A stretch of 64,000 bases of DNA from Candidatus Falkowbacteria bacterium (GTDB lineage: Bacteria; Patescibacteriota; Patescibacteriia; CAIXNZ01): assembly GCA_963774955.1 (NCBI GenBank), contig CAVZGV010000004.1, positions 67,522 to 131,521 on the forward strand, given 5' to 3'. The notes below the pieces were generated by a model. It was not told where the DNA came from, made no database searches, and was given only the letters and a program-made list of their open reading frames with translations. Positions 7,244 through 40,624 of the stretch are shown here, piece after piece. The stretch's first letter is position 1, and every line of letters begins with the position of its first letter. Made by a program: the position numbers and the translations under genes.

Positions 7244-7255
7244 TTTAGAATTAAT

Positions 7256-7510: not shown

Positions 7511-7515
7511 ACCAC

Positions 7516-12828: not shown

Positions 12829-12840
12829 AGGAGGACTGTC

Positions 12841-16228: not shown

Positions 16229-17962
16229 ATGCCAACTATGCGTGGCAACATCGAAGTTGTCTTAGCCAACCGCGGAGCATTGACTCTGCGACCGGCGGAT
16301 CACGTTGCCACCGGGGGAGAAGGCTCGATTTATCGGGCTAAAAACACCATCATCAAATTGTATACTGACCCCAGAAAAATGAATCAGGATGGCATGGTTG
16401 AAAAGATCAAACTCTTATCAGCCATTAAGCATCCTTTCATTGTTTCGCCCACGGGGCTGGTAAACAATAATGCTGGTACTCCTGTTGGCTTTTACATGCC
16501 TTTTAGCGAAGGCGAACCCTTGCCCAGAGTTTTTACCAATGACTGGCGCAAACGCGAAAACTTTAATGACCAGCAGGCAAAAACTTTGGTTGACAACATG
16601 CGACAGGCAGTCGAAGTTGCCCACGCCAACCACGCGCTTTTAGTTGATGCCAATGAGATGAACTGGCTAGTATCTTTGGCCAAAGCAAATCAGCCCGAAC
16701 CCAGAATCATTGATGTTGATTCCTGGCAAATTGGACGCTTCCCGGCCAAGGTCATCATGCTGTCCATCCGCGATTGGCTCAATCCAAAATTTACCGAGTC
16801 GAGCGACTGGTTTAGCTGGGGAATTGTCACCTTCCAGGTCTTTAGCGGCATCCATCCTTACAAAGGAACACTGCCAGGCTACAAACCCAATCAACTTGAA
16901 GATCGCATGAAAGCCAAAGCCTCGGTCTTTTCCCAAGGTATTCAGCTGAATAAAGCGGTTCGGGATTTCTCAGTTATTCCCGGGCCCTTGCTCGACTGGT
17001 ATATTGCCGCCTTCCAGAACGGCGAACGGACCAAACCACCGTCACCCTTCGATTCCGGACTGACTCAAGCCAAAGTAGCCAGAGTACTGCATGCAGTTAC
17101 AACCGCAAGCGGCCTGCTGGTTTTCGAAAAACTATTGCAGCCGGTCAACGACCCAGTGATCAGAATCTTTCCTTGCGGCGTGGTCTTGCTGAATTCAGGT
17201 AAGCTGTTTGACTTACAAAAGCAATACCAAATCAGCACGGCCAAAACCAGGGACGTTGAAATCATCAGGATTGATAACGGCTGGCTCAAAGCCGAGATCA
17301 TTAACAAGCGGTTACAATTCAATTTCATCAATGCAACCAGCCTCAACGAAGAACCGCTTAAATTTGATCTGGCTGGTGAGAAGATCTTTCGCTGCGACAA
17401 TCGCTTGTTTGTCATCAATGAGCAAGGCCTGACCGAAGTGATCCTGAAATTCTTTTCCAAGCCGATCCTGGCTCTGGGCAAAACCTGGGGCGTGCTGGCG
17501 AATTCCATTCGCTGGTATGATGGCTTGGGCATCCAAAACACCATGGGTGCGACTTACATCATTGCTCCGTTCAATGACACTGCCTGCGCCGAAATCAGGG
17601 TGCCGGAACTTGATGGCTTAAAACCCATTAGCGCCAAAGCCGGTCAACGTTACATAGTTGTCATTGCTTTAGACAAGCAAGGCAACTACCAAAAAGTTGA
17701 GCTGACTCTGGATCGGGAATATAAAACCTACAAGGTCTGGCAGGAAATTGTTGACAGCCCTGATCTTAATCTGACCATCTTGCCAAAAGGTGTCTGCGCG
17801 ACAATTGTCAAAGACGGAGAGCTGAACATCTTTGTTCCGACCTCAAGCACCCAAAACACGGTCAAAGATAAAAACATCAGCACTGACATGCTTTTATACA
17901 ACTGGGAGAACAAAGTTGTTTATCTGCAAAACGGCGAAATCTGGGGCGTTAAAATGAAATAA
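16229..17962 (+). CDS. Ser/Thr protein kinase-like protein (N-terminal kinase fold, large C-terminal domain)
   Basis: Gly loop ATGGEGSIYRA, Lys in IIKLYTD, catalytic-loop-like HANHALLVDANEMNWLV. Confidence 0.5.
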   Translation: MPTMRGNIEVVLANRGALTLRPADHVATGGEGSIYRAKNTIIKLYTDPRKMNQDGMVEKIKLLSAIKHPFIVSPTGLVNNNAGTPVGFYMPFSEGEPLPRVFTNDWRKRENFNDQQAKTLVDNMRQAVEVAHANHALLVDANEMNWLVSLAKANQPEPRIIDVDSWQIGRFPAKVIMLSIRDWLNPKFTESSDWFSWGIVTFQVFSGIHPYKGTLPGYKPNQLEDRMKAKASVFSQGIQLNKAVRDFSVIPGPLLDWYIAAFQNGERTKPPSPFDSGLTQAKVARVLHAVTTASGLLVFEKLLQPVNDPVIRIFPCGVVLLNSGKLFDLQKQYQISTAKTRDVEIIRIDNGWLKAEIINKRLQFNFINATSLNEEPLKFDLAGEKIFRCDNRLFVINEQGLTEVILKFFSKPILALGKTWGVLANSIRWYDGLGIQNTMGATYIIAPFNDTACAEIRVPELDGLKPISAKAGQRYIVVIALDKQGNYQKVELTLDREYKTYKVWQEIVDSPDLNLTILPKGVCATIVKDGELNIFVPTSSTQNTVKDKNISTDMLLYNWENKVVYLQNGEIWGVKMK

Positions 17963-17975
17963 CGCCCAACGGGGG

Positions 17976-18013
17976 GAGAAATTGTACCACGTTACAATTT
18001 CTCCCCCACTTCT
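17976..18013 (+). terminator. rho-independent terminator after kinase gene
   Basis: ggggagaaattgta...tacaatttctcccc hairpin. Confidence 0.6.
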
Positions 18014-18290
18014 TTCTTCATAAAATTGCGACCAAAAATATTTTGGTCATAATTTTATACTTTAATCTGAGATTAAAGTGAAACTAAGTTCTTTAAAACT
18101 TATACTCAAAACATATTTTACCCCTCCTTGGGGGTTTGGGGGGCCGAACTAAGCGTCGTGATCAAAACCACGAACGAACCATATGCACTAGCGCATTGAG
18201 GCCCCCCAAAACTTTTTGCATACTTTTTTGTTCAAAAAAGTATGAAGCCGAAGGCTTAAAGTTCTCAGAACCTGAAAGGAGGACCTAATC

Positions 18291-18488
18291 ATGGAAACCA
18301 CCAAACACAACCGGGAAGTGGTCCAAAGAGTGGGCGACTTGGTCGTAGACCTGTCTAACGAAGTCGATCCGCTGCCCATGTCTGAACCGGCCAAAGAAGC
18401 CATGGTCATGGTCATGGTTGCCAACTGCCTAAAAAGCCAGGGCAACATTGTTACCTTTTGTCTGCCAACCTTCAAGACTGGCTTATAA
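18291..18488 (+). CDS. small hypothetical protein (65 aa)
   Basis: AAAGGAGG RBS; preceded by AAAGTTCT box; followed by terminator 18557-18603. Confidence 0.45.
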   Translation: METTKHNREVVQRVGDLVVDLSNEVDPLPMSEPAKEAMVMVMVANCLKSQGNIVTFCLPTFKTGL

Positions 18489-18769
18489 CCAAGGCAATCT
18501 GAGACAGACAAAAAACTTAAATTTTCAGCTAATTTAAGCTGAAATGTTTTACTAGCACCATTAGCGGGGAAAGTCGGTTTTCACCCCGGCTTTCCCCCTT
18601 TTTAAAACCTTGACAAATATAACATATTTTGATAAACTAATAAGTCGTCTTTTACCTAATCTTAGACGAGCAATAGAAAATTTTAACTAAATAATTTTGG
18701 TTAAATTTTTCTGGCTTTGACTCAGTCAAAACCACAGTCCTTTAAACCTTAATTTAAGGGAGAAATCCT

Positions 18770-19405
18770 ATGCCAAAACAAATCATTGCCGTCGGCGGTT
18801 CAGCGGCTAATCCGCCTCACTTGGGGCACTTAGCTTTGATCCAAGCCATGTTACAATCAAAAAAATTTTCCAAAGTAATGTGGATCCCTTCCGGGGTGCG
18901 CCCGGACAAGCCTGACTTCATTGATCCGCAACATCGCCTGGCCATGACTGAACTGACACTGCAATCGATTACAGACAAAAGATTCATTTTGAATCCCAGC
19001 GATGTTTATGGCAAAAACATGCCGACCATCAAATGGATGGAGATTCTCAAGGAACAAAATCCCCAAGCGGAAATTGTCTGGTATACAGGCGTTGATTCTG
19101 TTGTGCCGCAAAAAAAATTCGGCGGCCTATGTAAAATTGAAGCGCGCTGGCAACATGGGGAAAAATTAATTAAGAATTTTAAATTCCTAATTATCCCCCG
19201 CGCCGGTTATCCGCAGCCTTCAACTTTCAAAATTCCTCTTGAGGATTATGAAATCCTGGATGTGGAACTGCCTGACATTGCCAGTTCAAAAATTCGAAAA
19301 CTTGTTCAAGGAGGTAACAGCGATTTTGAAAAACTAGTAACGCCTGAAGTTTCCGCCTATATCAAGGTTAACAAACTTTACGGATGGAAAGGAGAAAAAG
19401 CATGA
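18770..19405 (+). CDS. nadD: nicotinate/nicotinamide mononucleotide adenylyltransferase (NadD-like)
   Basis: GGSAANPPHLGHL (HxGH nucleotidyltransferase motif), about 210 aa. Confidence 0.65.
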   Translation: MPKQIIAVGGSAANPPHLGHLALIQAMLQSKKFSKVMWIPSGVRPDKPDFIDPQHRLAMTELTLQSITDKRFILNPSDVYGKNMPTIKWMEILKEQNPQAEIVWYTGVDSVVPQKKFGGLCKIEARWQHGEKLIKNFKFLIIPRAGYPQPSTFKIPLEDYEILDVELPDIASSKIRKLVQGGNSDFEKLVTPEVSAYIKVNKLYGWKGEKA

Positions 19406-20007
19406 GCAAAGCAGTGATCACTATTGGCGAAAGCGACGCCCTGACCATTGTTGACGGGCAAAATGATTTCATCTTGCAGACCGGAACTCTTTATGTGACC
19501 GGAGTGGAAGGTGAAACCGACAACGAGGAAATCATCAAACGAATCCAGGAACTATGGTCAAAATTTTCAACCTGGAGAACCACGACTGAAGATTTCCATC
19601 CCGAGAATCACGTGGAACACACGATTTTTGGTCCCCATTGCATTGAAGACACCGCCGGCCAGGAATATCATCCTGACCTGATGAAAATATATGAGGACGC
19701 TGATCTAAATCTATATAAAGGCGAAAATCCGGACATTATTGCCTATTCAATTGCAACCAGCCCTGATTTTCATGACCACATTTCCGATTTGCGCCAACAT
19801 GGCATCAAGAGAGTCTTTCTTGTCGGCTGGGCTTTCACCCATTGTGTGGGGGAATCGGCCATTGCCTATGCGACCCAAGGGTTTGAAACCTTTGTCTTCC
19901 GCGATCTGTCCCGGAGCGTTCCTCCGCCCTATGGCGATCCGGATGCAATGACCAAAAAGCTGGAACTCTACGGGGTCAAGCTGATCACGTCTGACCAAAT
20001 CGCTTAA
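19402..20007 (+). CDS. pncA: nicotinamidase PncA (isochorismatase family)
   Basis: LTIVDGQNDF, GPHCIEDTAGQEY, catalytic Cys in LVGWAFTHCVGESAI; ATG 19402 overlaps nadD stop. Confidence 0.7.
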   Translation: MSKAVITIGESDALTIVDGQNDFILQTGTLYVTGVEGETDNEEIIKRIQELWSKFSTWRTTTEDFHPENHVEHTIFGPHCIEDTAGQEYHPDLMKIYEDADLNLYKGENPDIIAYSIATSPDFHDHISDLRQHGIKRVFLVGWAFTHCVGESAIAYATQGFETFVFRDLSRSVPPPYGDPDAMTKKLELYGVKLITSDQIA

Positions 20008-20232
20008 ACACTCAGGGTGAGTCCGATTAATTTCGGACTTACCCTTTAGAAAAATGTAACTAACCGCGTTGTCATGGTGAGTCCTTCGACAAAGCTCAGG
20101 ACAAGCATAACGAGTTTATGGTGAGCCAAGCCGAACCAAACCATGACATTACCCCCGCTCATTTGGTTCCATTTTTCTTCTCTCAAACAGGTTGAGAGAG
20201 AAAGTTCTTTCGAAAAACAAAGGAGAAATAAG

Positions 20233-21165
20233 ATGAAGACTCATAACTATCTCTGGCATGCCTTTGGAATGAACGGGAAAATTCTTAATTGGTGGCCTGC
20301 AGAAAAGAGTAAATTTTCAGCGCCACAAGTTGAACTGGACATTTCTGACATTCAATCCCAGCTTTTTGAGAAGGTGGGTGAGTGGGTAGGAGTTAAGGAA
20401 TCTGAAAATCTTGAAGATGAAGAAATGATCACCCAGCATGTGCTTGAAACTTACCAAGCCTGGGGCAAATTCGGACCTTATGGTGATTTAATCCAAATCT
20501 CCTATGATAGAGACCAGCGCAGAGCGCATATCGATTTCATCGGCCGCCTGGCCTTCCCCAAACCAGCCCTGGCTGCTGACCTGCTTCCGATCATTCGTGA
20601 CGCTGCAGGAAATTTGTTCTTCATCGGCATCACCAGAAAAAAAGAGCCTGGAATCGGCAAACCCGCCTTGATCGGCGGACATCTCGACATCAAAGGCTAT
20701 CATCTAGAAACCGCAGCCGAAGCCCTGATTCACGAAGCCAAAGACGAAGTCGGGCTTAAAATTACAGTAATGAAGCAACATGCGCGCGAAATAAAAACCA
20801 AGCCCTATATGCCCAGGATTCCTGTTTCAGTCGGCTTGAAGGGCTATCCCAAACTGCCAAGCGAACTGCTTCTGGTCGGAACTTTTGAAACCTCGGCCGA
20901 AGAAAAGCTGCTGCATCTGGGTACAAGGCGAGTTTCCCAAACCACAGCTTACACCATGATCATCGACATCCGTGATCGAATATTAACTCCAGATGATGTC
21001 GCTAAGCTGTTTTCCGCCGGAGATGATGCAGCCAGCATCTTTGTTCATCAAATCACAAAAAATCACTGGCTATTCGATTTATTCAATCGCGCCATCTATC
21101 ATCATCAAACGATTTATGTGGCAGCACTGTCACAACTCCGCCGAGAGAGCATAATCAACATCTAA
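20233..21165 (+). CDS. hypothetical protein with degenerate Nudix-like box
   Basis: ETAAEALIHEAKDEVGL resembles Ex7REUxEExGU; AAAGGAG RBS. Confidence 0.4.
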   Translation: MKTHNYLWHAFGMNGKILNWWPAEKSKFSAPQVELDISDIQSQLFEKVGEWVGVKESENLEDEEMITQHVLETYQAWGKFGPYGDLIQISYDRDQRRAHIDFIGRLAFPKPALAADLLPIIRDAAGNLFFIGITRKKEPGIGKPALIGGHLDIKGYHLETAAEALIHEAKDEVGLKITVMKQHAREIKTKPYMPRIPVSVGLKGYPKLPSELLLVGTFETSAEEKLLHLGTRRVSQTTAYTMIIDIRDRILTPDDVAKLFSAGDDAASIFVHQITKNHWLFDLFNRAIYHHQTIYVAALSQLRRESIINI

Positions 21166-21342
21166 AACCCAGGGTGATTCATCAAAGTTACAAACTGCGA
21201 TGAATCACCCTTAGAAAAATGCACCCAAACGCTTCTGTCATGGTGAGCATAGTCGAACCATGACGGGACATCCGCTGATTTGGTTCCATTTTTCTTATCT
21301 CAAGTATCTTGAGGTAAAAGTTCTTTACAAAGGAGTACCAAG

Positions 21343-22128
21343 ATGAAAAAAATATTTGTACTGGCTAAAAGAGATGACCAGCCTAAATTTGTCAAAGCCA
21401 AAGAAGAAATTATCGACTGGCTGCGCCAAAAAAACTGTCTGGTTACTGAAACCAAACAAGCTGAACTTATTTTGGTCTTGGGAGGTGACGGCACCATGCT
21501 CAAAGCGATCAGACAACATGGAGTCAAAGGGATTCCGTTTTGTGGTCTGAATTTCGGCCATAAGGGCTTTTTGCTGAACGAATATAAGCGCGGAGTACTA
21601 ACCCAAATCATGAAAAACAAACTGGAGTACATCACCGCGCCTCTTCTGCAGGCCAAACTATTCAACCGCAACGGCCAGGAACTGGGTTTGATTTATGCTT
21701 TCAATGATATCTACCTGGAACGCAGTACCACCAACACCGCCAAACTGCACATCACTGTCGGACAAAAAATCCGCTTTGATCCCCTGATTGCTGATGGTGT
21801 GATTGTTTCCAGCGCAGCGGGCTCTACTAGCTACAACGCCTCAGCCGGCGGCGTAGTTGTGCCGATTGAAACCAACAGTCTGATTTTGACGGGAATTTGT
21901 CCGGCCATTTTCCACCAGTGGAAAAGCAGCCAATTGGCGGCTGACAGCACCATTACCATCACAGCCACGGAACTGGACAAGCGTCCGGTTCGTCTGGTTG
22001 CCGACGGTGAAGAAGTGAAAAACGCAGTCAAGGCTGTCATTTCCTATTCGGACCAAAAAGTCCGGATCGCTTTTGTCACCACCCAGGATTTCCGGAGCAA
22101 AGTTCTTAACCTGCAATTTCCTGAATAA
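21343..22128 (+). CDS. nadK: NAD kinase
   Basis: LVLGGDGTML (GGDG), NDIYLER, 261 aa. Confidence 0.8.
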   Translation: MKKIFVLAKRDDQPKFVKAKEEIIDWLRQKNCLVTETKQAELILVLGGDGTMLKAIRQHGVKGIPFCGLNFGHKGFLLNEYKRGVLTQIMKNKLEYITAPLLQAKLFNRNGQELGLIYAFNDIYLERSTTNTAKLHITVGQKIRFDPLIADGVIVSSAAGSTSYNASAGGVVVPIETNSLILTGICPAIFHQWKSSQLAADSTITITATELDKRPVRLVADGEEVKNAVKAVISYSDQKVRIAFVTTQDFRSKVLNLQFPE

Positions 22129-22140
22129 AGGAGGCTACAA

Positions 22141-23376
22141 ATGGCTATCATCTCTTCCCTGCTGGACACTGACTTTTACAAGTTCACCATGGGTCAACTG
22201 GCTTTTCTCTTTTATCCGGACATCGAGGTGGAATACACCTTCAAGTGTCGGAATAAGAATTTCCGGCTGGCTGACTTTATCAACCAGGATCGGCTCCGCG
22301 AGGAACTGATCGCCACCAGAGCCCTCAAGTTCAAGCACAGCGAGTTGCACTACCTGCGCGGCACCAATGAATATGCGGAACGCATGTTCAGCGAACCCTG
22401 GCTGGAGTTCCTGAAAAAAATGGACATGCCTGAATTTGAACTCCTGTCTGTCCAAGACGGCAACATTGTCTTGAGCTTCCGCGGTAAATGGCCCGAAGCC
22501 ATTTACTGGGAAACTCTGGCCCTGTCCATCATCAATGAGCTTTATTATGAAGCTCTGATGAAAAACATGACTGCTTTCAAAAAAGACGTCATTCTCAGCC
22601 AAGGCAAAATCCGGCTGGACGAAAAGATCAAAATGCTCAAAACCAGACCTGATGTTACTTTCATCGAGTTCGGCACCAGACGCAGATTTTCCCGGGACTG
22701 GCAGGACTATGTGGTTCAGGCTCTCAAGTCTGAACTTAAGCCTAGCCAGTTCCTCGGAACATCCAACACCTACCTGGCCATGAAGCATGACCTGATTCCC
22801 ATGGGCACTTCGGCTCACGAAGTGTACATGGCCTATTCCGGCATTTATCATGGCAGCGACGAGGAAATCCTCGCATCCCACAACAAGTCTCTGCAGGAAT
22901 GGTGGGATCTGTACGGCTTCGGCTTATCCGTTGCCCTGACAGATACTTACGGCTCGGACTTTTTCTTCCGCGACATGACAGAAGAGCAAGCCCGCAAATG
23001 GAAAGGCCTGCGTCAGGATTCCGGCGATCCTATCGTCTTTGGTGAAAAAGCCATCAAGTTCTACGAGAACTATGGCATTGATCCCAAGACCAAGCTGCTC
23101 ATCTTTTCCGATGGCCTGGATATCCAGACGATTTTCAAGATTGCTGATCACTTCAAGGACCTGATCAAGGTGTCCTTTGGCTGGGGCACGAACCTCACCA
23201 ACGACTTAGGCCTCAAGCCTTTGTCCATGGTCATCAAGCTGACCAAATCCAACGGCCATGGCACAGTCAAACTTTCCGACAATCTGGCCAAAGCCATGGG
23301 CTCTGACTATGATGTCGAACGTTTCAAACGCATCTTCGGCCACACCGTGACCGACAGAATTGATACGAAATACTAA
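22141..23376 (+). CDS. pncB: nicotinate phosphoribosyltransferase
   Basis: N-terminal SLLDTDFYKFTMGQ signature of PncB family, 411 aa. Confidence 0.75.
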   Translation: MAIISSLLDTDFYKFTMGQLAFLFYPDIEVEYTFKCRNKNFRLADFINQDRLREELIATRALKFKHSELHYLRGTNEYAERMFSEPWLEFLKKMDMPEFELLSVQDGNIVLSFRGKWPEAIYWETLALSIINELYYEALMKNMTAFKKDVILSQGKIRLDEKIKMLKTRPDVTFIEFGTRRRFSRDWQDYVVQALKSELKPSQFLGTSNTYLAMKHDLIPMGTSAHEVYMAYSGIYHGSDEEILASHNKSLQEWWDLYGFGLSVALTDTYGSDFFFRDMTEEQARKWKGLRQDSGDPIVFGEKAIKFYENYGIDPKTKLLIFSDGLDIQTIFKIADHFKDLIKVSFGWGTNLTNDLGLKPLSMVIKLTKSNGHGTVKLSDNLAKAMGSDYDVERFKRIFGHTVTDRIDTKY

Positions 23377-23424
23377 AAACCTGGCCCTCCGTATTTCATC
23401 AACGTTAGCGAACTTCGGAGGGCC

Positions 23425-23504
23425 CTCTACTCAAATTATTTTTAGGTGAACCAAAATCCAGAATCTATAATCTAGAATCTAGAATCCAAAAAAATAATTT
23501 AGGC
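23425..23504. repeat. intergenic inverted-repeat module, family A copy 1
   Basis: CTACTCAAATTATTTTTAGG ... (AATCTAGA)n ... AAAAAATAATTTAGG; preceded by terminator hairpin 23383-23424. Confidence 0.8.
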
Positions 23505-23542
23505 GGAGAAAGTTCTTTTCAAAAAAACAAAAGGAGAAAATC

Positions 23543-24694
23543 ATGCAAGTAGTTTACGCAGGTGAAAAAATTCCAACCAGCTGGAAAAAATCCATTTTCC
23601 TGGCTGGCCCAACTCCCCGAGACAAAAATGTTGTCTCATGGAGACCTGAAGCTTTGGCCATCTTACAGGCCAAAGGTTATGATGGCGTAATTTTCGCTCC
23701 GGAAAATCGGGACGGTCAGTCCAGACCCAATTATAATGACCAAGTCGAATGGGAAAACGAAGGACTTAACCGCACCGATGTTATTTTGTTCTGGGTACCG
23801 CGGGAACTGAAAACCATGCCCGCCTTTACCACTAATGTGGAATTCGGCGAATGGTTCAAATCCGGCAAAATCGTTTTGGGCTTTCCCCAGGACGCGCCCA
23901 ACATGAGATATCTGGAAAGCAAGGCCAAAGCTTTCAACGTTTCCTGCGCAGATACGCTGGAGGCAACGATTGATCTGGCCTTGAACATGCTCGGCGCCGG
24001 CGCGGATAGAAATAACGGAGAAACCTATGTGCCTTTACACATCTGGCAGACACCGGCTTTCCAAAACTGGTACCAGAATCTCAAAGCAGCCGGTAACCGG
24101 CTGGACTCAGCTCGAGTCGAGTGGGTTTTCCGCGTTGGTCCCAAGAAAAACTTTGTTTTTCTCTGGGTCCTGTATGTTGATGTTTTCATTACCAAGGAAA
24201 ACCGCCACAAAACCAACGAAGTCATTCTGGCTCGCCCGGACATTGCCACCATCCTGATGTACAAACCCGCAAAAATTTTGCTGGAAACTGAGATTGTCCT
24301 GATCCGGGAATTTCGCAGTCCGGTTTCCAACTCTGACGGCTATGTCTGGGAAATCCCCGGCGGTTCATCTTTCAAACCGAAAGAAGATCCCAACAAACTC
24401 GCAGCGCATGAAGCTTTTGAAGAAACCGGGATGGAAATTCTAGCCGAACGTTTCAAAGCAATCGATGCCAGGCAACTCTGCGCCACACTGTCCACTCACA
24501 AGGCTCATCTGTTTGCCGTGGAAGTAACCGATGATGAAATCAATTGGTTACGCCAGCAGCAAGGAGTTGCTCACGGCGTAATCGAAGACACGGAACGCAC
24601 TTACGTGGAAATAAAAACCCTTCAAGAAATTCTGGCTCAGAATCTGGTTGACTGGAGCATACTCGGCATGATCCTCTCAGTCTTAATAAAATAA
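23543..24694 (+). CDS. fusion of nucleoside 2-deoxyribosyltransferase-like domain and NUDIX hydrolase
   Basis: KSIFLAGP Rossmann-like N-terminus; C-terminal Nudix box GGSSFKPKEDPNKLAAHEAFEETGM. Confidence 0.55.
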   Translation: MQVVYAGEKIPTSWKKSIFLAGPTPRDKNVVSWRPEALAILQAKGYDGVIFAPENRDGQSRPNYNDQVEWENEGLNRTDVILFWVPRELKTMPAFTTNVEFGEWFKSGKIVLGFPQDAPNMRYLESKAKAFNVSCADTLEATIDLALNMLGAGADRNNGETYVPLHIWQTPAFQNWYQNLKAAGNRLDSARVEWVFRVGPKKNFVFLWVLYVDVFITKENRHKTNEVILARPDIATILMYKPAKILLETEIVLIREFRSPVSNSDGYVWEIPGGSSFKPKEDPNKLAAHEAFEETGMEILAERFKAIDARQLCATLSTHKAHLFAVEVTDDEINWLRQQQGVAHGVIEDTERTYVEIKTLQEILAQNLVDWSILGMILSVLIK

Positions 24695-24737
24695 ACTCTT
24701 TAGGCCCAGTACCGAGCTTTGCTCTGGTGCTGGGCTA

Positions 24738-24813
24738 TCTACTCAAATTATTTTTGTTAATCAAAATCTAAAATCCATAATCTAGAATCTATTATCTACA
24801 AAAATAATTTAAG
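24738..24813. repeat. intergenic inverted-repeat module, family A copy 2
   Basis: CTACTCAAATTATTTTTG ... AATCTA repeats ... CAAAAATAATTTAAG; terminator hairpin 24703-24735. Confidence 0.8.
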
Positions 24814-24861
24814 TAGGGATAGTTCCTTAAATTTTAAAGAAACACAAAAGGAGAAATAAAG

Positions 24862-25680
24862 ATGACCATGCCGAGAGATTTAATTTTGGTTCGCCACGGA
24901 CAGTCCGAAGGCAACCTGGTAATTATGCAATTGGAAAAGCAAGGACTGCCAGTGCCGGATGAATATTACCGCAAGCACACAGCTCACTGGCGTCTGACCA
25001 GCAAAGGAGTACAGCAGGCGGAAATAGCAGGACAATGGCTGCGGCAGAACTTGGTTACCGAATTTGACCGCTACTATGTTTCTGACTATGTCAGGGCCAA
25101 AGAAACAGCCGCCTTACTCGGGCTGAAACAGGCTTCCTGGGGCATCAACATTTACCTTGGCGAACGCAACTGGGGTATTATGGATCGATATACTGAAGAA
25201 GAAAGAAACAAAATCTTTGAGATTGATTTAGTAACCAAGAAGATCCACCCCTTTTACTGGACCCCGCCCCGCGGCGAATCCATGGTTCAGCTGTGCCTGC
25301 GTCTGGAAAAAGTCCTGGAAACTCTGCATCGCGAATGCGCTGATGGCCGGGTTATTCTAGTCTGTCACGGCGAGGTAATGTGGGGCTTTCGGATCATTCT
25401 GGAAAGAATTCCTCCGGACAAATACGTGAAACTTGATGAATCCAAAAATCCTTTTGACAGGATTCACAACTGCCAAATTCTGCACTACTCGAGAAAAAAT
25501 CCCGGCACTGGTCAGCTTTCTGACCATCTCGACTGGATGAGGTCTCTTTGTCCGACGGATCTGAGTTTATCTGCCAATGCCTGGCAAGAAATTAGCCGAC
25601 CGCGGTTTACCAACGAACAGCTGCTGAAACATGCAGCCAAATTTCCTCGGGTAATCGATAATCAGGAGGAAAAATCATGA
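24862..25680 (+). CDS. histidine phosphatase superfamily (phosphoglycerate mutase-like) protein
   Basis: LILVRHGQSEGN (RHG motif). Confidence 0.7.
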   Translation: MTMPRDLILVRHGQSEGNLVIMQLEKQGLPVPDEYYRKHTAHWRLTSKGVQQAEIAGQWLRQNLVTEFDRYYVSDYVRAKETAALLGLKQASWGINIYLGERNWGIMDRYTEEERNKIFEIDLVTKKIHPFYWTPPRGESMVQLCLRLEKVLETLHRECADGRVILVCHGEVMWGFRIILERIPPDKYVKLDESKNPFDRIHNCQILHYSRKNPGTGQLSDHLDWMRSLCPTDLSLSANAWQEISRPRFTNEQLLKHAAKFPRVIDNQEEKS

Positions 25681-26639
25681 TTGACAAAATCGCTCACGGC
25701 CAGGGCCAGATGAGAGCCCAGTCTTTTTCCATTCAGGTTTCTGACCGGGAAAAATGCAATGCGGGCTGCAAATTTTGCATCTCGCGCACCACGCCCGGAG
25801 ATTCCCAAAGAATTCTGATTCCAAAGATGCAAGAGACAAAACCCAAGCTCTGCGACTTTGACCGCCTTAAAATCGGCCTGAATTATGCCAGAAGTCTGGG
25901 TGCAACTCATGCTATCCTGACTGGCAAGGCTGATCCGCTTCAGGAGCCGACCGAAGAGCTGTGCAAATTGCTTCAGCTCTGCCGGGAATATCTGCCGCTC
26001 GCGGATATGCACACTAATGGATTACTCCTCCATCCTGAATTCAATAGAGGAAATGACCTGACCCAGCTCAAACAAGCGGGTTTAACCATGATCACTATTT
26101 CTCTGGCATCCTTCAACGAGCAGCAGAACTTTGAACTGATGCGCATCAAAAAAAGCGCCGCTGACCTGATTAAACAAGCAGCGGATCTTGGCCTGCTGGT
26201 GCGCTGCTCCCTGGTCGTCAATGCTCAGGGAGTCGCTGATGTGGCAGGCGTGATTGATTATTGCAGACAAGCCGGTGAGCTCGGCGCTCATATGGTCGTG
26301 GTTCGCGAAGTCTGGGTGCCTGAAATCTATGGCGAGCGCAACCTGGGAGTCTACGATTGGAACAAAACCAATAAGATCAACATCAAGCCGATCCAGGACC
26401 ATTTCATTGAAATTTGCCATAAGAAAAATGATTTTGGCCTATGCCAACTTGATCCTTTGCCATGGGGCACTCCGGTCTTTGGCATGGCCGGTGTCTTTAC
26501 CAATCAAGATCACGGGGTAAACATCACCTTTGCCTGTTGTGACGAAGGCACCACCGGTTCGGTCATCAAGTCTATCGTGCACAAACCCAACGGCCACGGT
26601 TACGGTAATTGGGATCATGGTGGTCGTATCCTTTATTAA
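25677..26639 (+). CDS. radical SAM enzyme of unknown specificity
   Basis: CNAGCKFC (Cx3Cx2C); AGGAGG RBS; ATGA overlap with upstream gene. Confidence 0.6.
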   Translation: MIDKIAHGQGQMRAQSFSIQVSDREKCNAGCKFCISRTTPGDSQRILIPKMQETKPKLCDFDRLKIGLNYARSLGATHAILTGKADPLQEPTEELCKLLQLCREYLPLADMHTNGLLLHPEFNRGNDLTQLKQAGLTMITISLASFNEQQNFELMRIKKSAADLIKQAADLGLLVRCSLVVNAQGVADVAGVIDYCRQAGELGAHMVVVREVWVPEIYGERNLGVYDWNKTNKINIKPIQDHFIEICHKKNDFGLCQLDPLPWGTPVFGMAGVFTNQDHGVNITFACCDEGTTGSVIKSIVHKPNGHGYGNWDHGGRILY

Positions 26640-26676
26640 ATTTTTAGGGCGAATCCCGCGACGCAGGATTCGCCCC

Positions 26677-26778
26677 TCTACTCAAATTATTTTTAGGTAA
26701 TCAAAATCTAGAATCTATGCCGCGTAGCGGCATCCCGCTTCGCGGGAAAACCTAAAATCTAACTAAAAATAATTTAGG
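26677..26778. repeat. intergenic inverted-repeat module, family A copy 3 (with extra GC hairpins in the centre)
   Basis: CTACTCAAATTATTTTTAGG ... gccgcgtagcggc / cccgcttcgcggg ... CTAAAAATAATTTAGG. Confidence 0.8.
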
Positions 26779-26851
26779 CGGAGACAGTTCTTTTCAAAAA
26801 CATTTAACCAAGTCGCCGTCGCTAAAGCTATGGCGACTAAAGGAGAAAAAA

Positions 26852-27859
26852 ATGAGCAGAGACAAAGTAAGAGCCATGTTTTTGGGAGTGGCCATCGGCG
26901 ATGCCCTGGGCATGCCAGTGGAAACAAAAAACTTTTTGGAAATCGAAACTGAGCATGGCCGCGTAACAGATTATCTGGATCCCGGTAACCATAAATGGTT
27001 CAAAGGGTTTCAGCGCGGACAATGGACTGATGATACCCAAGCCACCTTGGCTGTGCTCACATCCCTGATTATTCAAGGCAAAATTGACTTGGCTGATATG
27101 GCTCAGAGACAGATAGACACAATGAACGAATGTTCAAAGGGCTGGGGACGCAGCACCAAAAACTCTCTTCGTGCAGTTGAACGCGGGGTTCACTGGCTGA
27201 AATCAGGTAATCCCCAGGGAGCCGGCAATGGCGTGGCCATGAAAATCGCGCCGCTGGCAGCCTATCTGGCCGCTCCCAATACCGATCATGCCATTGCCGA
27301 AAATGTTGCCGAACTGGCACTGATGACCCATCAGACTGACATGGCGGTACTTTCCGGCTTTGTCCAAATGCACGCTTTGTCATATTGCCTCAATTGCGTC
27401 GACGAAAATCGCCCTTTTTCCGCCGAAGGTCTGTTACAGTATGTTCTGCGCTACGGCAAAGCAGTCAAAGTCATGCTGCGCGAAAAAAAATATCAGCTGA
27501 CCTATCTGCAGGAGGATTTCCTCGGCCGCTTTGCCGCAATGATGTGTCTGTTTGATGAATTCAAGCAGATGACACCGGCCAAATTGGCCGAATGTTACGG
27601 CGGCGCTGACTGCTATGTTTACAATTCGCTGCCATTCACCATTGCCATGTTCCTGCGCAATCCGCATTCCATTGAAACTCTTTACGACACGGTCAATGCC
27701 GGCGGCGACACAGATACCAATGGTTCCATGGTCGCTGCTCTGCTCGGCAGCCTTAACGGCACCAAGATTTTCCCAGCGCATCTGATTGACGGCCTGTGGC
27801 AGAAAGACCGGATTCTCCAGGTCGCCAATGACTTCTGCGACCGTTTCCAAATCAAATAA
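26852..27859 (+). CDS. ADP-ribosylglycohydrolase (ARH/DraG family)
   Basis: AIGDALGMPVE and AGGDTDTNGSMVAALLGS signatures. Confidence 0.8.
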   Translation: MSRDKVRAMFLGVAIGDALGMPVETKNFLEIETEHGRVTDYLDPGNHKWFKGFQRGQWTDDTQATLAVLTSLIIQGKIDLADMAQRQIDTMNECSKGWGRSTKNSLRAVERGVHWLKSGNPQGAGNGVAMKIAPLAAYLAAPNTDHAIAENVAELALMTHQTDMAVLSGFVQMHALSYCLNCVDENRPFSAEGLLQYVLRYGKAVKVMLREKKYQLTYLQEDFLGRFAAMMCLFDEFKQMTPAKLAECYGGADCYVYNSLPFTIAMFLRNPHSIETLYDTVNAGGDTDTNGSMVAALLGSLNGTKIFPAHLIDGLWQKDRILQVANDFCDRFQIK

Positions 27860-27900
27860 ACTCCCGAGGCGTGAATTCCTAAATTCAGGAGTTCACGCCT

Positions 27901-27973
27901 CCTAACTCAAATTATTGTTCCGCCCAAAAATCTAAAATCTAGAACCTAAAATCCAACAATAATTTAAGTTAGG
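27901..27973. repeat. intergenic inverted-repeat module, family A copy 4
   Basis: CCTAACTCAAATTATTGTT ... AACAATAATTTAAGTTAGG (19-bp inverted repeat) flanking AATCTA repeats; terminator 27866-27901. Confidence 0.8.
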
Positions 27974-28022
27974 AGGGAAAGTCCCTTAACAATTTTAAAA
28001 AATACCAATAGGAGGTTTTCAG

Positions 28023-28934
28023 ATGAACAAGCAAATCCTGTACTACTGCCCGCAAATGGCTGACCTGGCGCCAAAAATCAAAACGCTTTGTCCTGATCTT
28101 GTTTTGGGAAACATTTCCTGGGACTTTTTCCCTGATGGTTTTCCCAACATCAAAATCAACGACGTCAAAATGGCCAAAAACGCAGACGTTATCTTTCTGG
28201 CCAGTCTGGACAGCCCGGCTGAAATTTTCAATCAGCTGAGCGTAATCTATGCCCTGCCCCGCTACCTGGTAAAATCGCTCAAAGTGATTTTGCCCTTTTA
28301 CCCGACTGGAACCATGGAAAGAATTGAAACTCAAGGTGAGATTGCCACGGCCATGACCTTGGCACGGATGCTGTCAGCAACGCCAATGACGCAAAGTGGC
28401 CCAACACAAATCATCATCTATGACATCCATGCACTCGGAGAACAGTTTTATTTTTCCGATCAGGTGCTAGTCAGACTGGAAACAGTGGCTGATTCTTTGA
28501 TCGAACTTTTTCCCAAAGATGAATACGATCTGGCTTTCCCTGATGACGGCGCTTACAAACGCTTTGCCCGTTATTTCCCGGGTTATCCCGAGATCATCTG
28601 CCAAAAAGTTCGCGATGGTGATAAGCGCATCATTCAGATCAAAGAAGGAAAGCCTCGGGGCAGAAAAATTGTCATGATTGACGATTTGATCATGTCCGGC
28701 GGAACACTTCTCGAATGCGCCCAAAAATTGCTTGAAGCCGGAGCCCTTGAAGTTCTGGCCTATGCCACCCATCCGGTTTTCCCGGTCAACTCCTGGAAAC
28801 GGTTCATAACCAGCGACATTCTTAAAGTCGTGGTGACTGATTCCTGCCCCAAAACCGTGGCCACAATCAAAGGTCAGCCGAAATTTCAGATAATTTCTCT
28901 GGCCGACAAAATCGCCAACATCATAAACGAGTAG
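28023..28934 (+). CDS. prs: ribose-phosphate pyrophosphokinase (PRPP synthetase) family protein with divergent flexible loop
   Basis: DIHALGEQFYF, PRPP motif VMIDDLIMSGGTL, YATHPVF; the loop region PFYPTGTMERIE differs from canonical PYFGYARQDR. Confidence 0.7.
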   Translation: MNKQILYYCPQMADLAPKIKTLCPDLVLGNISWDFFPDGFPNIKINDVKMAKNADVIFLASLDSPAEIFNQLSVIYALPRYLVKSLKVILPFYPTGTMERIETQGEIATAMTLARMLSATPMTQSGPTQIIIYDIHALGEQFYFSDQVLVRLETVADSLIELFPKDEYDLAFPDDGAYKRFARYFPGYPEIICQKVRDGDKRIIQIKEGKPRGRKIVMIDDLIMSGGTLLECAQKLLEAGALEVLAYATHPVFPVNSWKRFITSDILKVVVTDSCPKTVATIKGQPKFQIISLADKIANIINE

Positions 28935-28947
28935 AAAGGAGTTCAAG

Positions 28948-30915
28948 ATGGGACTGATCAAAATTGGCATGGCTAATATCGACACCACTGTCGGTGCCGT
29001 AGCTTCCAACACTGACAAAATCATCGCCTGTCTCGAAAAGATGTGCGCTGAAAAAGTCACTATTGCCTGTTTCCAGGAACAAGTAATTGGCGGTTATCCT
29101 GCCGAAGACTGGATTCAGTGGCCTGATTTCGTCGCCGCTCAACAGCGCGAACTATACAAAATCATTGCCTTGAGCGGAAAACGGAAATTTCCTGCCGTGA
29201 TCACCCTGGGAGTTACCATGAAGGTTGAAAACAACCTCTATAACTGCCAGGCGGTAATTGCTGATGGCATGTTGATCGGTATTGTGCCCAAGGAAAAACT
29301 GCCGACCTATGGAGTGTTCTACGAAGGTCGAACTTTTTCTCCCGGTATCCCTTATGATTACCGACAAATTGCCACCGGAACATTAGTCAACTTCGGCGAC
29401 ATGATTTTTAAGGCTTCTTTCGGCACTTTTGCCGTGGAAGTCTGTGAGGATATTTGGACACCGGACGGCCCCATGAAACGCCGAGCCTACAGCGGGGCCG
29501 AACTGATCATCAATGCTTCTGCATCCCCTTTCCGCGTCGGCGTGGTTAACACCCGGAAGGAAATGCTGGCCACCAGATCGGCTGACAATCAGGCCACCGT
29601 GGTCTATGTCAACCAGTATGGAGGCAATGATTCCCTGGTCTTTGACGGCGGCGGTTACATTTACCAAAATGGCCGCTGCCTGCTGGAAGCACCCCGCTGG
29701 CAATCGGGCATCTCCTACCAAACTGTGGATCTGAATGTGACTGCCACCTGTCGTCAAACAAACACCACCTGGCGGATGGATCAGCAGGAATTTCTCAAAA
29801 CCAACCAGCCGGTACAAACGATTCCGTGCAATTGTAACCGAGTTCTCAATGAGGACTATGAGTATCCCAAACCCGCGAACCAGAACTTCTTCATGCCGGC
29901 AGTGAAACCGAAAATCGACGAACGCGCCGAATATTTCGAAAATCTGATCGAAGCCATGATTACCGGGCTGGACGGTTACTATGCAAAAACCAATGCTTTC
30001 AAGGGCATTGGCATCGCTCTGTCCGGCGGCAAGGATTCCGTACTAACGCTGATGATTGCCTGGCTTTACCGCCAAAAAATTTATCAGAGAGCAAAAGAAG
30101 CAAACAACTACGCCAAAGTCAGCTTTGCTGATTTTATCCGCTGTTTCTCCATGCCGAGCAAGTTCAATTCGGATACAACCAAGAATATTTCCCGCCTGCT
30201 GTGCGAGGAACTTGAGGTCAGCCTGATTGAACTTTCGATTGAAGATGCATTTGAGCGTGAAGTCGCCGCCACAAAAAAAATGCTGGGACTGCCTCAGACA
30301 GCTGAGCTGAAAAAAATCACCCTGCAAAACATTCAGGCCAGAATCCGCGGCCAGCGCATGCTCAATTGGGCCAATGAAACCAATGGTATGTGGTTGCAAA
30401 CCGGCAACATGTCCGAGAAGGCAGTGGGATACACCACAGTCGGCGGAGACATGATGGGAGCTTACTCCCTGATTTCCAATCTGCCCAAGTCTGTCATCAT
30501 TGAACTGATTGACTATCTGACTGAAAGGTATCAGTTTGAAGGGCTGAAGCTGTTGCAACAGACCAAGCCTTCGGCTGAACTGGCACCTGACCAGGAAGAT
30601 GAAAAGGATTTGATGCCCTTCCCGATTTTAGATGCCTGTATGCATCTCTTTGTCGGGGAAAAGATGAATCCCAGTCAGATGCTGAAAGTCCTCAAAAGCA
30701 TGTGGACTGAAGAGGAACTGAGAGCCATGACTCCGGGTTATGCCCCTGACATTCTCAAGGCATGGGTTAACAAATTCATCACTCTGTTCCATCGCTCCAT
30801 TTTCAAATGGGTTCTCACCCCCGAAGGTGTCCATTTGGGAAAGGAAGATCTGGATCGTGAACGAGCCACGCAACTGCCGGTAGTAACATCTACCGAATGG
30901 TTGCCTAAGCTTTAA
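28948..30915 (+). CDS. nadE: glutamine-dependent NAD+ synthetase (CN-hydrolase plus NAD synthase domains)
   Basis: 655 aa; PP-loop SGGKDS in C-terminal domain; N-terminal nitrilase-like domain. Confidence 0.8.
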   Translation: MGLIKIGMANIDTTVGAVASNTDKIIACLEKMCAEKVTIACFQEQVIGGYPAEDWIQWPDFVAAQQRELYKIIALSGKRKFPAVITLGVTMKVENNLYNCQAVIADGMLIGIVPKEKLPTYGVFYEGRTFSPGIPYDYRQIATGTLVNFGDMIFKASFGTFAVEVCEDIWTPDGPMKRRAYSGAELIINASASPFRVGVVNTRKEMLATRSADNQATVVYVNQYGGNDSLVFDGGGYIYQNGRCLLEAPRWQSGISYQTVDLNVTATCRQTNTTWRMDQQEFLKTNQPVQTIPCNCNRVLNEDYEYPKPANQNFFMPAVKPKIDERAEYFENLIEAMITGLDGYYAKTNAFKGIGIALSGGKDSVLTLMIAWLYRQKIYQRAKEANNYAKVSFADFIRCFSMPSKFNSDTTKNISRLLCEELEVSLIELSIEDAFEREVAATKKMLGLPQTAELKKITLQNIQARIRGQRMLNWANETNGMWLQTGNMSEKAVGYTTVGGDMMGAYSLISNLPKSVIIELIDYLTERYQFEGLKLLQQTKPSAELAPDQEDEKDLMPFPILDACMHLFVGEKMNPSQMLKVLKSMWTEEELRAMTPGYAPDILKAWVNKFITLFHRSIFKWVLTPEGVHLGKEDLDRERATQLPVVTSTEWLPKL

Positions 30916-30921
30916 GCTTTA

Positions 30922-30950
30922 AGCCCCCTGCTAAGCGGGGGGCTTTTTTT
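30922..30950 (+). terminator. rho-independent terminator at end of GC-rich island
   Basis: gccccctgctaagcggggggc hairpin + T7 run. Confidence 0.7.
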
Positions 30951-31126
30951 ATACACACCCCCTCTTGCTATATCTTCATATTCTGGTAAAATGTTACATA
31001 TCTAATACAAACAGCGTCTAAGCAGCAGCAAAGCCGGCCAAACCATGGATCGGCTTTTAGTATTGACAATATCTCAATTTTGTGATATGATATGGGATAC
31101 CCTTAATTAATAATTATCCCATATTT

Positions 31127-31639
31127 ATGAAATTATTTATGTTAAATTTGCATAAAACAATTACTAAAATTAGCCAAATAGCAGAAAAAACAGCGCTTTT
31201 AGTGCTAATATTAGCCTTGGTTTGGCAATGCTTTCCCAGGGTTACTTCATTGGCTGCTATTGATACTCAATTGTTAACAACGCCTCCTCAGGAAGTTGTA
31301 GCTTTAGTAGAAAATGCCATGGAATCTCTTGGTGAGCCTAAACGAGTACTCACAGTACCGGTTACGGCCTACAACAGTTTACCGGGCCAGACTGATTCCA
31401 CTCCCTGTATTACTGCTAATGGCTTTAATTTATGTAAAAATGATACTCAAAATGTTATTGCTGCCAATTTCTTGAAATTTGGCACCAAGGTCAGATTTCC
31501 TGATTTTGATCCTGATACTATTTATACTGTTCAGGACAGAATGAATGCCAGATATACATATCGAGCTGACATTTGGATGAAATCATATGCTGATGCCAGA
31601 CAATTTGGCATTAAAAATTTAAAAATGGAAATTTACTAA
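31127..31639 (+). CDS. 3D-domain protein (MltA/YuiC-like double-psi beta-barrel), secreted
   Basis: N-terminal hydrophobic segment; conserved Asp pattern in VTAYN..TPCITANG..TKVRFPD..YTVQDRM. Confidence 0.55.
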   Translation: MKLFMLNLHKTITKISQIAEKTALLVLILALVWQCFPRVTSLAAIDTQLLTTPPQEVVALVENAMESLGEPKRVLTVPVTAYNSLPGQTDSTPCITANGFNLCKNDTQNVIAANFLKFGTKVRFPDFDPDTIYTVQDRMNARYTYRADIWMKSYADARQFGIKNLKMEIY

Positions 31640-40528: not shown

Positions 40529-40624
40529 GAAAAAGCCTCCTCTGTGTCATGGTGAGCTCAGTCGAACCATACACCGACGGCGCCACCCGTTCGACTATGC
40601 TCAGGGTGACAGAGGAGGCTTTTT
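40529..40624. repeat. family B imperfect palindromic element (GTCATGGTGAGC type)
   Basis: AAAAAGCCTCCTCTGT ... GTCATGGTGAGCTCAGTCGAACC ... ACAGAGGAGGCTTTTT. Confidence 0.7.

Follow-up and report, generated by a model that had tools for sequence, protein, structure and literature searches.

Ribonuclease (RNase) III sites lie between the early genes of phage T7, a case related to the one described here. In operons under selective RNA processing and stabilisation (SRPS), intercistronic stem-loops and processing sites set the stoichiometry of the cistrons (PMC4423207, PMC8219983), and the intercistronic expression element of plastids is a further related case (PMC2230500). Our analysis concerned a 64,000-nt stretch (hereafter the window) of the Candidatus Falkowbacteria bacterium assembly GCA_963774955.1 (contig CAVZGV010000004.1, positions 67,522 to 131,521), in which four intergenic modules of one family, termed family A, are placed along an NAD-metabolism operon. 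The reading that we favour, tentatively, is that these modules would act as intercistronic processing or stabilisation elements of one long NAD-metabolism mRNA and not as boundaries between separate units. To our knowledge, hardly anything of gene regulation in Patescibacteria (the candidate phyla radiation, CPR) has been explored, as the organisms remain uncultured and few of their regulators can be recognised.

Module structure and covariation

The four family A regions (IG1 to IG4; Table 1) are all intergenic, each lying between co-directional open reading frames (ORFs) of the + strand. They align end to end (alignment A1) and share arms, heptamer repeats and tail, which upholds the common architecture proposed in the initial annotation; at a mean column identity of 60%, they are not the near-identical modules described there. 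Between copies, identity was 48-59% in the first hairpin, 46-80% in the centre and 54-76% in the 3′ tail. Neither of the two outcomes named beforehand as fatal, copies that fail to align beyond the ribosome-binding site (RBS) or a lack of conserved secondary structure, was encountered: the alignment extends beyond the RBS, and the helix is kept with compensatory changes.

From 5′ to 3′, a module consists of a GC hairpin (hp1), a second hairpin (hp2) closed around a loop of 7-nt tandem repeats, a third hairpin (hp3), an A-rich spacer and a Shine-Dalgarno (SD) site. The onset of hp1 lies 6-8 nt past the upstream stop codon in all four window modules, and its GC-rich stem measures 10-15 bp. Immediately after it comes hp2, an AT-rich helix whose base is pyrimidine-rich on its 5′ side and, on its 3′ side, purine-rich and SD-like. 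The arms of this inverted repeat are 11-22 nt long, 94-100% complementary and 35-60 nt apart, so that 64-108 bp are spanned overall; the left arm carries the motif (C)CTCTACTCAAATTATT(T/G)TT, and the right arm the motif AA(A/C)AATAATTTA(G/A)G plus the outer complement. The string CTACTCAAATTATT(T/G)TT occurs exactly four times in the modules, and the sole other copy of its 11-nt core is found within polA. As for the inverted-repeat strings given in the initial annotation, GGCGGAGAAAGTTCTTTTCAAAAA is exact in IG1 and has one mismatch in IG3, whereas IG2 and IG4 carry covarying variants of it (in IG4, a 22-position helix, CCTCCTAACTC.../...GTTAGGAGG). The right arm is followed by a GTYCYTT block and then the A-rich spacer, with GGAG 6-8 nt upstream of the ATG; the AAAGGAGAAA RBS ascribed to all copies is replaced by AGGAGG in IG4. 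IG3 has additional parts: two GC mini-hairpins sit in its heptamer array, and one more hairpin precedes the SD site.

Table 1. Coordinates of the operon, its boundaries and the family A and family B modules in the window
Feature	Position	Strand	Details
NAD-metabolism operon	18770..30915	+	11 co-directional genes
Operon promoter	18610..18638	+	TTGACA-17-TAAACT with TG; upstream of nadD-like gene; kept in L160, L161
Canonical intrinsic terminator	30921..30945	+	GC hairpin and TTTTTTT; after nadE, operon end
IG1, family A	23377..23542	+	hp1 23383-23424; hp2 23425-23508; heptamers 23455-23486; hp3 23505-23518; SD GGAG 23533-23536
IG2, family A	24695..24861	+	hp1 24703-24736; hp2 24739-24816; heptamers 24759-24798; hp3 24814-24827; SD 24849-24852
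IG3, family A	26640..26851	+	hp1 26647-26675; hp2 26676-26783; GC mini-hairpins ~26718-26746; extra hairpin 26811-26838; SD 26842-26845
IG4, family A	27860..28022	+	hp1 27866-27901; hp2 27898-27976; heptamers 27927-27953; hp3 27975-27985; SD AGGAGG 28010-28015
Family B module 1	20008..20233	+	GC hairpin; AGAAAAATG/CATTTTTCT stem around GC-rich insert; CTCTCAA/TTGAGAG hairpin; AAAGTTCTTT; SD
Family B module 2	21166..21342	+	

Covariation in hp2 was assessed on 14 copies from four genomes (relatives are introduced below), with the loops swapped for a short linker before alignment. Across 18 pairs, 94.8% of the cells were paired, and both sides had changed at 9 of the 18; none of 500 shuffles paired as well, and sliding the partner by 1-3 columns lowered pairing to 36-53%. 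The inner stem occurs in the variants TTATTTTT/AAAAATAA, TTATTGTT/AACAATAA, TTATTATT/AATAATAA, TTACTTAA/TTAAGTAA and TTTGCTTAT/ATAAGCCAA. The predicted helix comprises 18-22 positions in 14 of 14 copies regardless of loop length, with loops of 6 nt (L168 1878-2012, without heptamers), 11 nt (L161_a) and about 70 nt (IG3), and one C.A opposition stands at a constant place of the stem in nearly all copies. Fold z-scores of hp2 in IG1 to IG4 were -2.0, -7.3, -5.3 and -10.3, respectively. RNase III-type enzymes need a helix of double-stranded RNA (dsRNA) that makes two turns; the predicted 18-22 positions of hp2 come to roughly the length of an RNase III substrate (about 20-22 bp of dsRNA). In hp3, which takes the forms GGAGA-AAGU-UCUUU, GGGA-UAGU-UCCU and GGG-AAAGU-CCC, 91% of the positions were paired, with both-side changes at one pair. 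Paralogous hp1 types also showed compensatory differences when compared by eye (GAATCC/GGATTC, GATTCC/GGAATC and GAACC/GGTTC).

The description of the centre as variable and built from short tandem repeats proved accurate. AATCTAG-type heptamers gave 17 matches against 2.6 expected (0 of 100 shuffles reached 17), and Tandem Repeats Finder reported period 7 with 3.9-4.9 copies and 80-88% matches in IG1, IG2 and IG4, in the loop only; the array of IG3 is interrupted by its two GC mini-hairpins. The unit is AATCTAG in the window, where it puts a UAG every 7 nt, and in L160, and it is AGTTGTWW or CCATANG in L161; at the sites of L161 and L168, the AATCTAG arrays are exchanged for unrelated units (AGTTGTAA, CCATACG) or missing. 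Because the sequence of the unit, its copy number and even its presence are not conserved, the arrays are best explained as products of replication slippage. According to a passage of PMC4679880 that draws on Mrazek 2007, heptamers are the commonest unit of long simple-sequence repeats in prokaryotes and are ascribed to slippage. The AATC heptamers at 3986-4018 were set aside as unrelated, being within the coding sequence of tsaE. A TAGTTAT/TAGTTGT heptamer array of 4.9 copies was also observed at 7114-7147, between a near-consensus promoter and a tRNA-like sequence, and its unit resembles the AGTTGTWW units of the L161 module loops.

Transcriptional setting

The operon encodes, in genes 1-6, a nadD-like product, PncA, an unknown protein of 340 aa, NAD kinase, nicotinate phosphoribosyltransferase (NAPRTase) and a Nuc_deoxyribosyltransferase-like/Nudix fusion, followed in genes 7-11 by a His_Phos_1 protein, a radical SAM protein, an ADP-ribosylglycohydrolase (ARH), a protein similar to phosphoribosyl pyrophosphate (PRPP) synthetase and a glutamine-dependent NadE. 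At junctions without a module, the genes overlap or stand 12-13 nt apart, as is seen with translational coupling. The promoter at 18610 is the only near-consensus one of the stretch, and the terminator at 30921 is the only canonical one downstream of it; the syntenic operon of L161 is bracketed likewise (promoter 457-485, terminator 12817-12840). From this bracketing of 11 genes in two genomes, we infer that the operon may be transcribed as one unit.

The window is part of a bacterial chromosome with a GC content of about 37%, which encodes PolA, TsaD, HolA, YchF, a type II/IV secretion ATPase and HisD, and the relatives found belong to Candidatus Parcubacteria/Patescibacteria. Its GC-richer "island" corresponds to the NAD-metabolism region, and NrtR, PnuC and a NadR-like gene are located at 9.6-12 kb. 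A phage origin was rejected, as viral contigs held no relative of the 383-aa gene. Past a few relatives in Patescibacteria, the closest homologues of the PRPP-synthetase-like gene (28023-28934) were Desulfobacterota proteins and plant/algal "ribose-phosphate pyrophosphokinase 4" at 50-57% identity; these distant homologues, together with the higher GC content of the gene, suggest an ancient horizontal acquisition.

Relatives and module evolution

Exact-pattern scans with the two repeat arms covered 185,579 species genomes and a metagenome collection. One true relative was found among the species genomes, L014 (the same contig as L160), at one locus with two matches, both in the operon, and the metagenome matches listed contained no true module. 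All but one of the at least about 160 loci from both collections were discarded as chance AT-rich matches without heptamers or tail. Further relatives came from protein-guided retrieval, namely L161, which is syntenic throughout, L168, L170 and L169, which is a second contig of the metagenome-assembled genome of L160; the orthologous spacers of these relatives hold family A modules. L161 has a family A module at the site orthologous to family B module 2, and the last hairpin and tail of family B (CTCTCAA...TTGAGAG-AAAGTTCTTT-SD) can be aligned with the base of family A hp2.

Comparison of these copies revealed three evolutionary modes within one module: the 3′ tail is kept by position, the inner stem and loop are homogenised in each genome, and hp1 is shuffled among positions. 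Orthologous positions of the window and L161 agree in 3′ arm and tail at 96% (IG1/L161_b), 83% (IG2/L161_c) and 84% (IG4/L161_e), next to genes with 53-94% protein identity and 42-75% identity at four-fold sites; synonymous sites in the flanks of the tail agree at about 45%. The inner stem and loop are closer to other copies in the same genome than to their orthologues, and within-genome gene conversion of modules would be expected because copies recur a few kb apart. As an example of hp1 exchange, the hairpin after the NAPRTase gene in the window is found in L161 behind the Nudix fusion gene. What is conserved of the module follows the downstream gene and not the upstream gene, and hp1 swaps independently of the latter.

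The genes themselves form a mosaic. Amino-acid identity to L161 was 92% for nadD, 64% for pncA, 64% for the unknown gene, 65% for nadK, 94% for pncB, 72% for the Nudix fusion, 77% for the phosphatase, 71% for radical SAM, 53% for ARH, 86% for prs and 85% for nadE, and synonymous sites mirror this gene-by-gene pattern. The L160/L169 genome has a non-orthologous pncA (239 aa), NAPRTase/pncB (534 aa) and NadE (300 aa versus 655 aa) in the same slots. Of five jumps in divergence from L161, three coincide with family A modules and two with module-free junctions. The cassette-like character of the gene units, as proposed initially, is thus reflected in their mosaic identity of 53-94% and slot replacements; the separate termination and promotion proposed with it is not.

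L169 and L170 are 100% identical over a 3.6-kb flank, yet L169 lacks hp1 and hp2 before the ARH gene, where it has a CG-rich palindromic insert of 90 nt; L170 keeps the family A tail. This CG-dinucleotide-rich insert of about 90 nt (…ATCGGTT.CGGTTAACGTTTCGTAAAACGTTTAACG…) is located between module tail and SD site in both L161 (3090-3185) and L169 (1150-1245) and is missing from L170, and repeats of the ACGTTTTAC type also occur upstream of nrtR in the window (compare 9270-9370).

The NAD operons of four distant Patescibacteria (L162, L165, L166 and L167) have spacers that are unrelated in sequence and follow the same two-hairpin design. Their second hairpins have a 5′ base of CTCCTT, CTTTTCC, TCTTTAC or CTCTTTTT and a 3′ base of AGGAGG, GAAGAG, AAGGA or AAAGAGG, followed by an A-rich spacer and an SD site. 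Six unrelated families (A, B, L162, L165, L166 and L167) therewith place a pyrimidine-5′/purine-3′ hairpin just upstream of the A-rich spacer and SD site, and in family A and the modules of the four distant genomes it stands directly after the GC hairpin. This constant orientation with respect to the genes argues for a strand-specific role at the level of RNA or transcription, and is hard to reconcile with a strand-neutral property of the DNA.

Mobile-element and RNA-family searches

The observation that canonical RYYYAAC/GTTRRRY cores are not evident was confirmed by a regular-expression scan: GTTRRRY is absent from every module, and RYYYAAC occurs only in loops or tails, never at the ends of the repeats. 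By sequence reading, IG4 has near-matches to attC cores at six of seven positions (TCCTAAC and GTTAGGA). No integron integrase (IntI) was found in the 64-kb window, where the only tyrosine recombinase is of the XerA type (52824-53636, - strand), 25 kb from the modules. This 270-aa protein scores 235 with an archaeal XerA/integron-integrase-like model, above the cut-off of 220, and 223.6 with TIGR02249, below the cut-off of 265, with a split match that skips profile positions ~180-247, the IntI-specific insert. Bottom-strand folds of hp2 are continuous helices without bulges, in which the C.A of the top strand becomes G.U (G.T in DNA); single-strand folding yielded a conserved helix and not the extrahelical bases of attC sites.

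A REP-associated tyrosine transposase (RAYT; REP, repetitive extragenic palindrome) is encoded at 5433-6047 on the - strand. The hp1 hairpins were considered as its REP elements and rejected, their types being heterogeneous and not dispersed; the dispersed family is another GC double hairpin, CCGCCAAAGGCGGA.... A GC double-hairpin repeat, CCGCCAAAGGCGGATCCGCCTCCGGCGGA, is present at 7200, 7660, 7806, 7952, 44179, 51840 and other positions and may be the REP family of the RAYT. In Rfam searches, no family matched the modules: over the window only tRNAs reached the gathering threshold, and an E-value scan of 17900-31200 returned generic hairpin/miRNA noise far below thresholds.

Several other small repeats were seen. 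The element GTCATGGTGAGCNNAGTCGAACC occurs in both orientations in the window (20070-20150, 21237-21262 and 40546-40620), in L160 (7330-7370) and in L161 (1925-2000); it lies within the family B loops, and a terminator-like hairpin at 40546-40620 has a REPIN-like stem made of two copies in inverted orientation. Intergenic spacers contain 4-5 tandem copies of a 10-bp unit (CCTNATATAA-like) at 9542-9588, just upstream of the nrtR start (where no SD site is obvious), at 4332-4379, between 4220 and 4387, and at 51431-51473, where they adjoin the start annotated for the ORF at 51465; their helical-repeat periodicity suggests a DNA-bending or leader function. The region 7148-8016 contains a tRNA-Glu-like 5′ portion, a short ORF that by eye resembles a GIY-YIG-type nuclease and an intact tRNA-Glu (7516-7588), followed by a 146-bp unit, tandemly repeated 3.1 times, in which the 3′ part of the tRNA and the GC double hairpin are duplicated. 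The spacers at 46497-46506 and 47059-47068 (- strand) share AGATTGAAAYATAGGTMAAGTTCTTTAWA, a likely TTGAAA-type promoter containing AAGTTCTTT, a string that is also found in module tails.

Interpretation

Under the processing and stabilisation reading, an endonuclease would cut the polycistronic transcript at or in hp2. The two-turn helix of hp2 would be the element recognised or cleaved, possibly as an RNase III-type site, and its large A/U-rich loop would suit enzymes of the RNase Y/E type; among the scanned ORFs of the 64-kb window, no RNase gene was detected. After the cut, hp1 would shield the new 3′ end of the upstream cistron, and how stable the downstream cistron is and how well it is translated would depend on the 3′ arm of hp2, hp3 and the leader. 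We propose that a cut in hp2 with protected ends could give each gene or coupled gene pair an expression level of its own from one promoter. The repeated modules may double as homologous joints for gene-by-gene replacement, as has been proposed for the promoter(early) stem-loop (PeSL) elements of phages (PMC2839356, PMC4122927).

A wider version of this reading, to which we assign a low probability, is a lineage-wide "operon punctuation" of Patescibacteria. Two-hairpin modules cut by an endonuclease would split a 12-kb polycistron into separately stabilised and translated messages and would also serve as integrase-free homologous joints for gene swaps. The second helix of about 20-22 bp would pair an anti-SD-like pyrimidine tract with an SD-like purine tract, and the SD-like tract, once freed close to the newly made 5′ end, might stabilise the message by binding ribosomes.

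Several points weigh against processing and stabilisation. Co-transcription, cleavage and stabilisation are all steps that we infer from sequence. The pattern of wobbles and mismatches is blind to strand, as a C.A on the + strand is a G.U on the - strand and a U.G on the + strand is an A.C on the - strand; a single G.U confined to the + strand was seen, in L169. A strand call from G.U asymmetry and folding energies was dropped as ambiguous; as to the energies, the A-richness of the + strand generally lets the - strand fold better. Without any selection, compensatory changes in inverted repeats can also come from gene conversion or intrastrand template switching. Since copies in the same genome are non-independent, the independent events in hp2 are few, roughly 6-8, and the loss of hp1 and hp2 in L169 indicates that the module is dispensable there.

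The main rival, which we regard as unlikely, takes the modules for selfish or neutral palindromic repeats, similar to REP/REPIN or miniature inverted-repeat transposable elements (MITEs), that are kept by gene conversion and quasi-palindrome correction and whose only effect would be to offer short recombination homologies in a PeSL-like manner. The homogenised inner stem and loop, the shuffled hp1, the presence/absence polymorphism between near-identical strains and the mosaic divergence with non-orthologous replacements would all agree with it, as would the RAYT gene and the nested small palindromes (the GC mini-hairpins of IG3, GTCATGGTGAGC...CGAACC in family B and at 40546, and the 90-nt CG-rich element of L161 and L169). 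It is opposed by the confinement of the modules, since the 64-kb window holds four family A copies and none of them outside the operon, and both matches at the single locus of the relative also fall in the operon; this confinement speaks equally against the likeness to MITEs suggested at first. The hp1 types appear nowhere else in the window, and neither consistent target-site duplications nor matching termini were found to flank the modules (only in IG2 and IG3 does a string, TTTAGG, recur, once where hp1 starts and once within the 3′ arm). The outer stem and 3′ tail are specific to position and exceed synonymous sites by far in conservation, families of unrelated sequence repeat the same architecture in the same orientation, and two of the five divergence breakpoints fall at module-free junctions.

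Rather less likely, in our estimate, is that the modules are leaky intrinsic terminators (attenuators), formed by hp1 and a pyrimidine tract or by hp2 and UUCUUUU, which would lower expression stepwise without internal promoters. U-rich tracts do follow hp1 in distant relatives (CUUUUCCUUCUUCU in L165, UCUUUUUCGG in L167), hp2 of the window is followed after 3-4 nt by UUCUUUU(C), and a passage of PMC8355165 proposes hairpin clusters as terminators. The corresponding family A tract after hp1, CUCUACUCAAAUUA, has only three U in its first 8 nt, and a terminator scan of the window and L161 flagged the hairpins at the operon ends and no module hairpin, all of the latter being without a T-run. Moreover, hp3 takes up the U-rich stretch after hp2 into its own covarying pairs, and attenuation leaves the constant helix length of hp2 unexplained.

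The initial annotation had viewed each gene or gene pair as an independently terminated and promoted cassette, with a GC-rich terminator hairpin in each module. That the modules combine a terminator with a promoter, whose -10 element may lie in the heptamer array (e.g., TATAAT at 23466-23471), now appears improbable. TATAAT, CATAAT or TAAAAT strings do occur inside the AATCTAG arrays, one sigma-70 match at 9 of 12 positions is present on the + strand of IG2 (TTGTTA-16-CATAAT), with others on the - strand of IG1 and IG3, and L160 has, by eye, TTTACT-18-TATAAT at an orthologous module. However, no -35/-10 pair is conserved among the four window copies, the arrays are replaced or absent in L161 and L168 with no promoter-like site in their stead, and none of the five family A modules of L161 contains a promoter-like or terminator-like site. 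Hairpin hp1 lacks a T-run in all four window modules and for that reason was not called terminator-like. Genuine unit boundaries in this lineage are near consensus, with a GC hairpin, a T-run and TTGACA/TATAAT (L165 2873, 4160 and 5310). The tail motif AAAGTTCTTT neighbours TTGAAA-type promoters at 47059 and 46497 on the - strand; as part of a promoter in the modules it was rejected, as no -35/-10 pair fits around it there.

It is very unlikely that the modules are arrays of binding sites for a trans-acting factor, be it NrtR (9594-10265), another DNA-binding protein or a HutP-type RNA-binding protein reading UAG-N4. One heptamer unit is common to all copies within a genome, the unit of the window repeats UAG every 7 nt, and the gene for an NAD regulator lies 8 kb upstream. 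The HutP-like reading was discarded as valid only in the window/L160 lineage; L161 has two unrelated units, L161_a and L168_y are nearly loopless, and an insertion of 30 nt is tolerated in IG3. The sites recognised by NrtR are palindromes of 21 bp around a GT-N7-AC core (PMC2330246), and a pattern search found no such palindrome in any family A or B module. Two similar palindromes of this type, TTAGTGTATAAAATACACTTA and ATTGTGTATATAAGACACTAA, are situated at 10295-10315 and ~9450-9470, upstream of pnuC and nrtR, and are likely candidate NrtR operators. From their position, the probable targets of NrtR are the transporter and nadR genes, not the operon that carries the modules. A further 21-bp palindrome, TTAAAGTTCTCAGAACCTGAA (18256-18276), has a GT-N7-AC core and arms that pair at 8 of 10 positions, immediately precedes the SD site of a 65-aa ORF and includes as one half-site AAAGTTCT, a motif of the module tails.

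Integron-like attC sites separating mobile gene cassettes are largely refuted and retain next to no probability: the imperfect inverted repeats of 64-108 bp with a variable centre between co-directional ORFs, the one conserved non-Watson-Crick stem position and the gene replacements in relatives recall such sites, yet the modules have no R″/R′ cores at the repeat ends and no bottom-strand bulges, the window offers no integron integrase (its XerA-type recombinase being distant, on the other strand and below the TIGR02249 cut-off), each downstream gene has its own conserved leader and SD site, and the linkage of module and gene is opposite to the behaviour of attC.

Should the modules be processing or stabilisation signals, they would show a minimal genome tuning eleven NAD-salvage genes from a single promoter and would add to the catalogue a new structured RNA family with solid covariation. 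Should they be merely tolerated palindromic repeats, their interest would be modest and descriptive. The three-way evolutionary split within the module is a clean natural case of concerted evolution and modular exchange within one operon.

Comparison with known systems

With integron attC sites, the modules share an imperfect inverted repeat and a variable centre between co-directional ORFs; they differ in having no core sites, no extrahelical bases and no IntI in the window, and in the linkage of their parts to the downstream gene. The period-7 arrays of two to six copies in transcribed intergenic DNA near start codons, with a unit that varies by lineage, resemble the heptanucleotide repeats known as long simple-sequence repeats (LSSR), the cyanobacterial short tandemly repeated repetitive sequences (STRR) and the TAACTGA repeats of Beggiatoaceae (PMC4679880). 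Unlike these, the module arrays are seated in the loop of a conserved helix, and orthologous sites can do without them.

Small palindromic repeats such as REP/REPIN, Correia/NEMIS and BOX are modular, have variable internal repeats and can stabilise mRNA or be processed in it. Like them (PMC3184786), the modules are intergenic hairpin repeats able to sit in operons, and a RAYT gene is present in the window. In contrast to REP/REPIN, the modules are restricted to one operon, their hp1 is heterogeneous, and their 3′ part is position-specific and kept with the downstream gene.

The PeSL cassettes of T4-type phages (PMC2839356, PMC4122927) are likewise composite stem-loop motifs repeated between small groups of genes, and in both systems neighbouring genes differ sharply among relatives, consistent with exchange via the repeats. 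PeSL elements have a recognisable early promoter whereas the modules have none, the host here is a bacterial chromosome and not a phage hyperplastic region, and only three of the five divergence breakpoints are at modules.

The stem-loops of SRPS operons, such as Clostridium cip-cel (PMC4423207, PMC8219983), are similarly sited between the cistrons of a long operon, with a stable hairpin directly after the stop codon without a U-tract and a second structure before the next RBS, and the helix of about two turns would suit RNase III in both. In contrast to the mapped processing sites of SRPS operons, those of the modules are putative. The modules are set apart by being a repeated family with concerted evolution, by the heptamer arrays in the hp2 loop and by an hp2 base that pairs a pyrimidine tract with an SD-like purine tract. 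Collectively, these predicted elements are a new sequence family of a known general kind, the intercistronic hairpin modules, with unusually clear covariation and dynamics.

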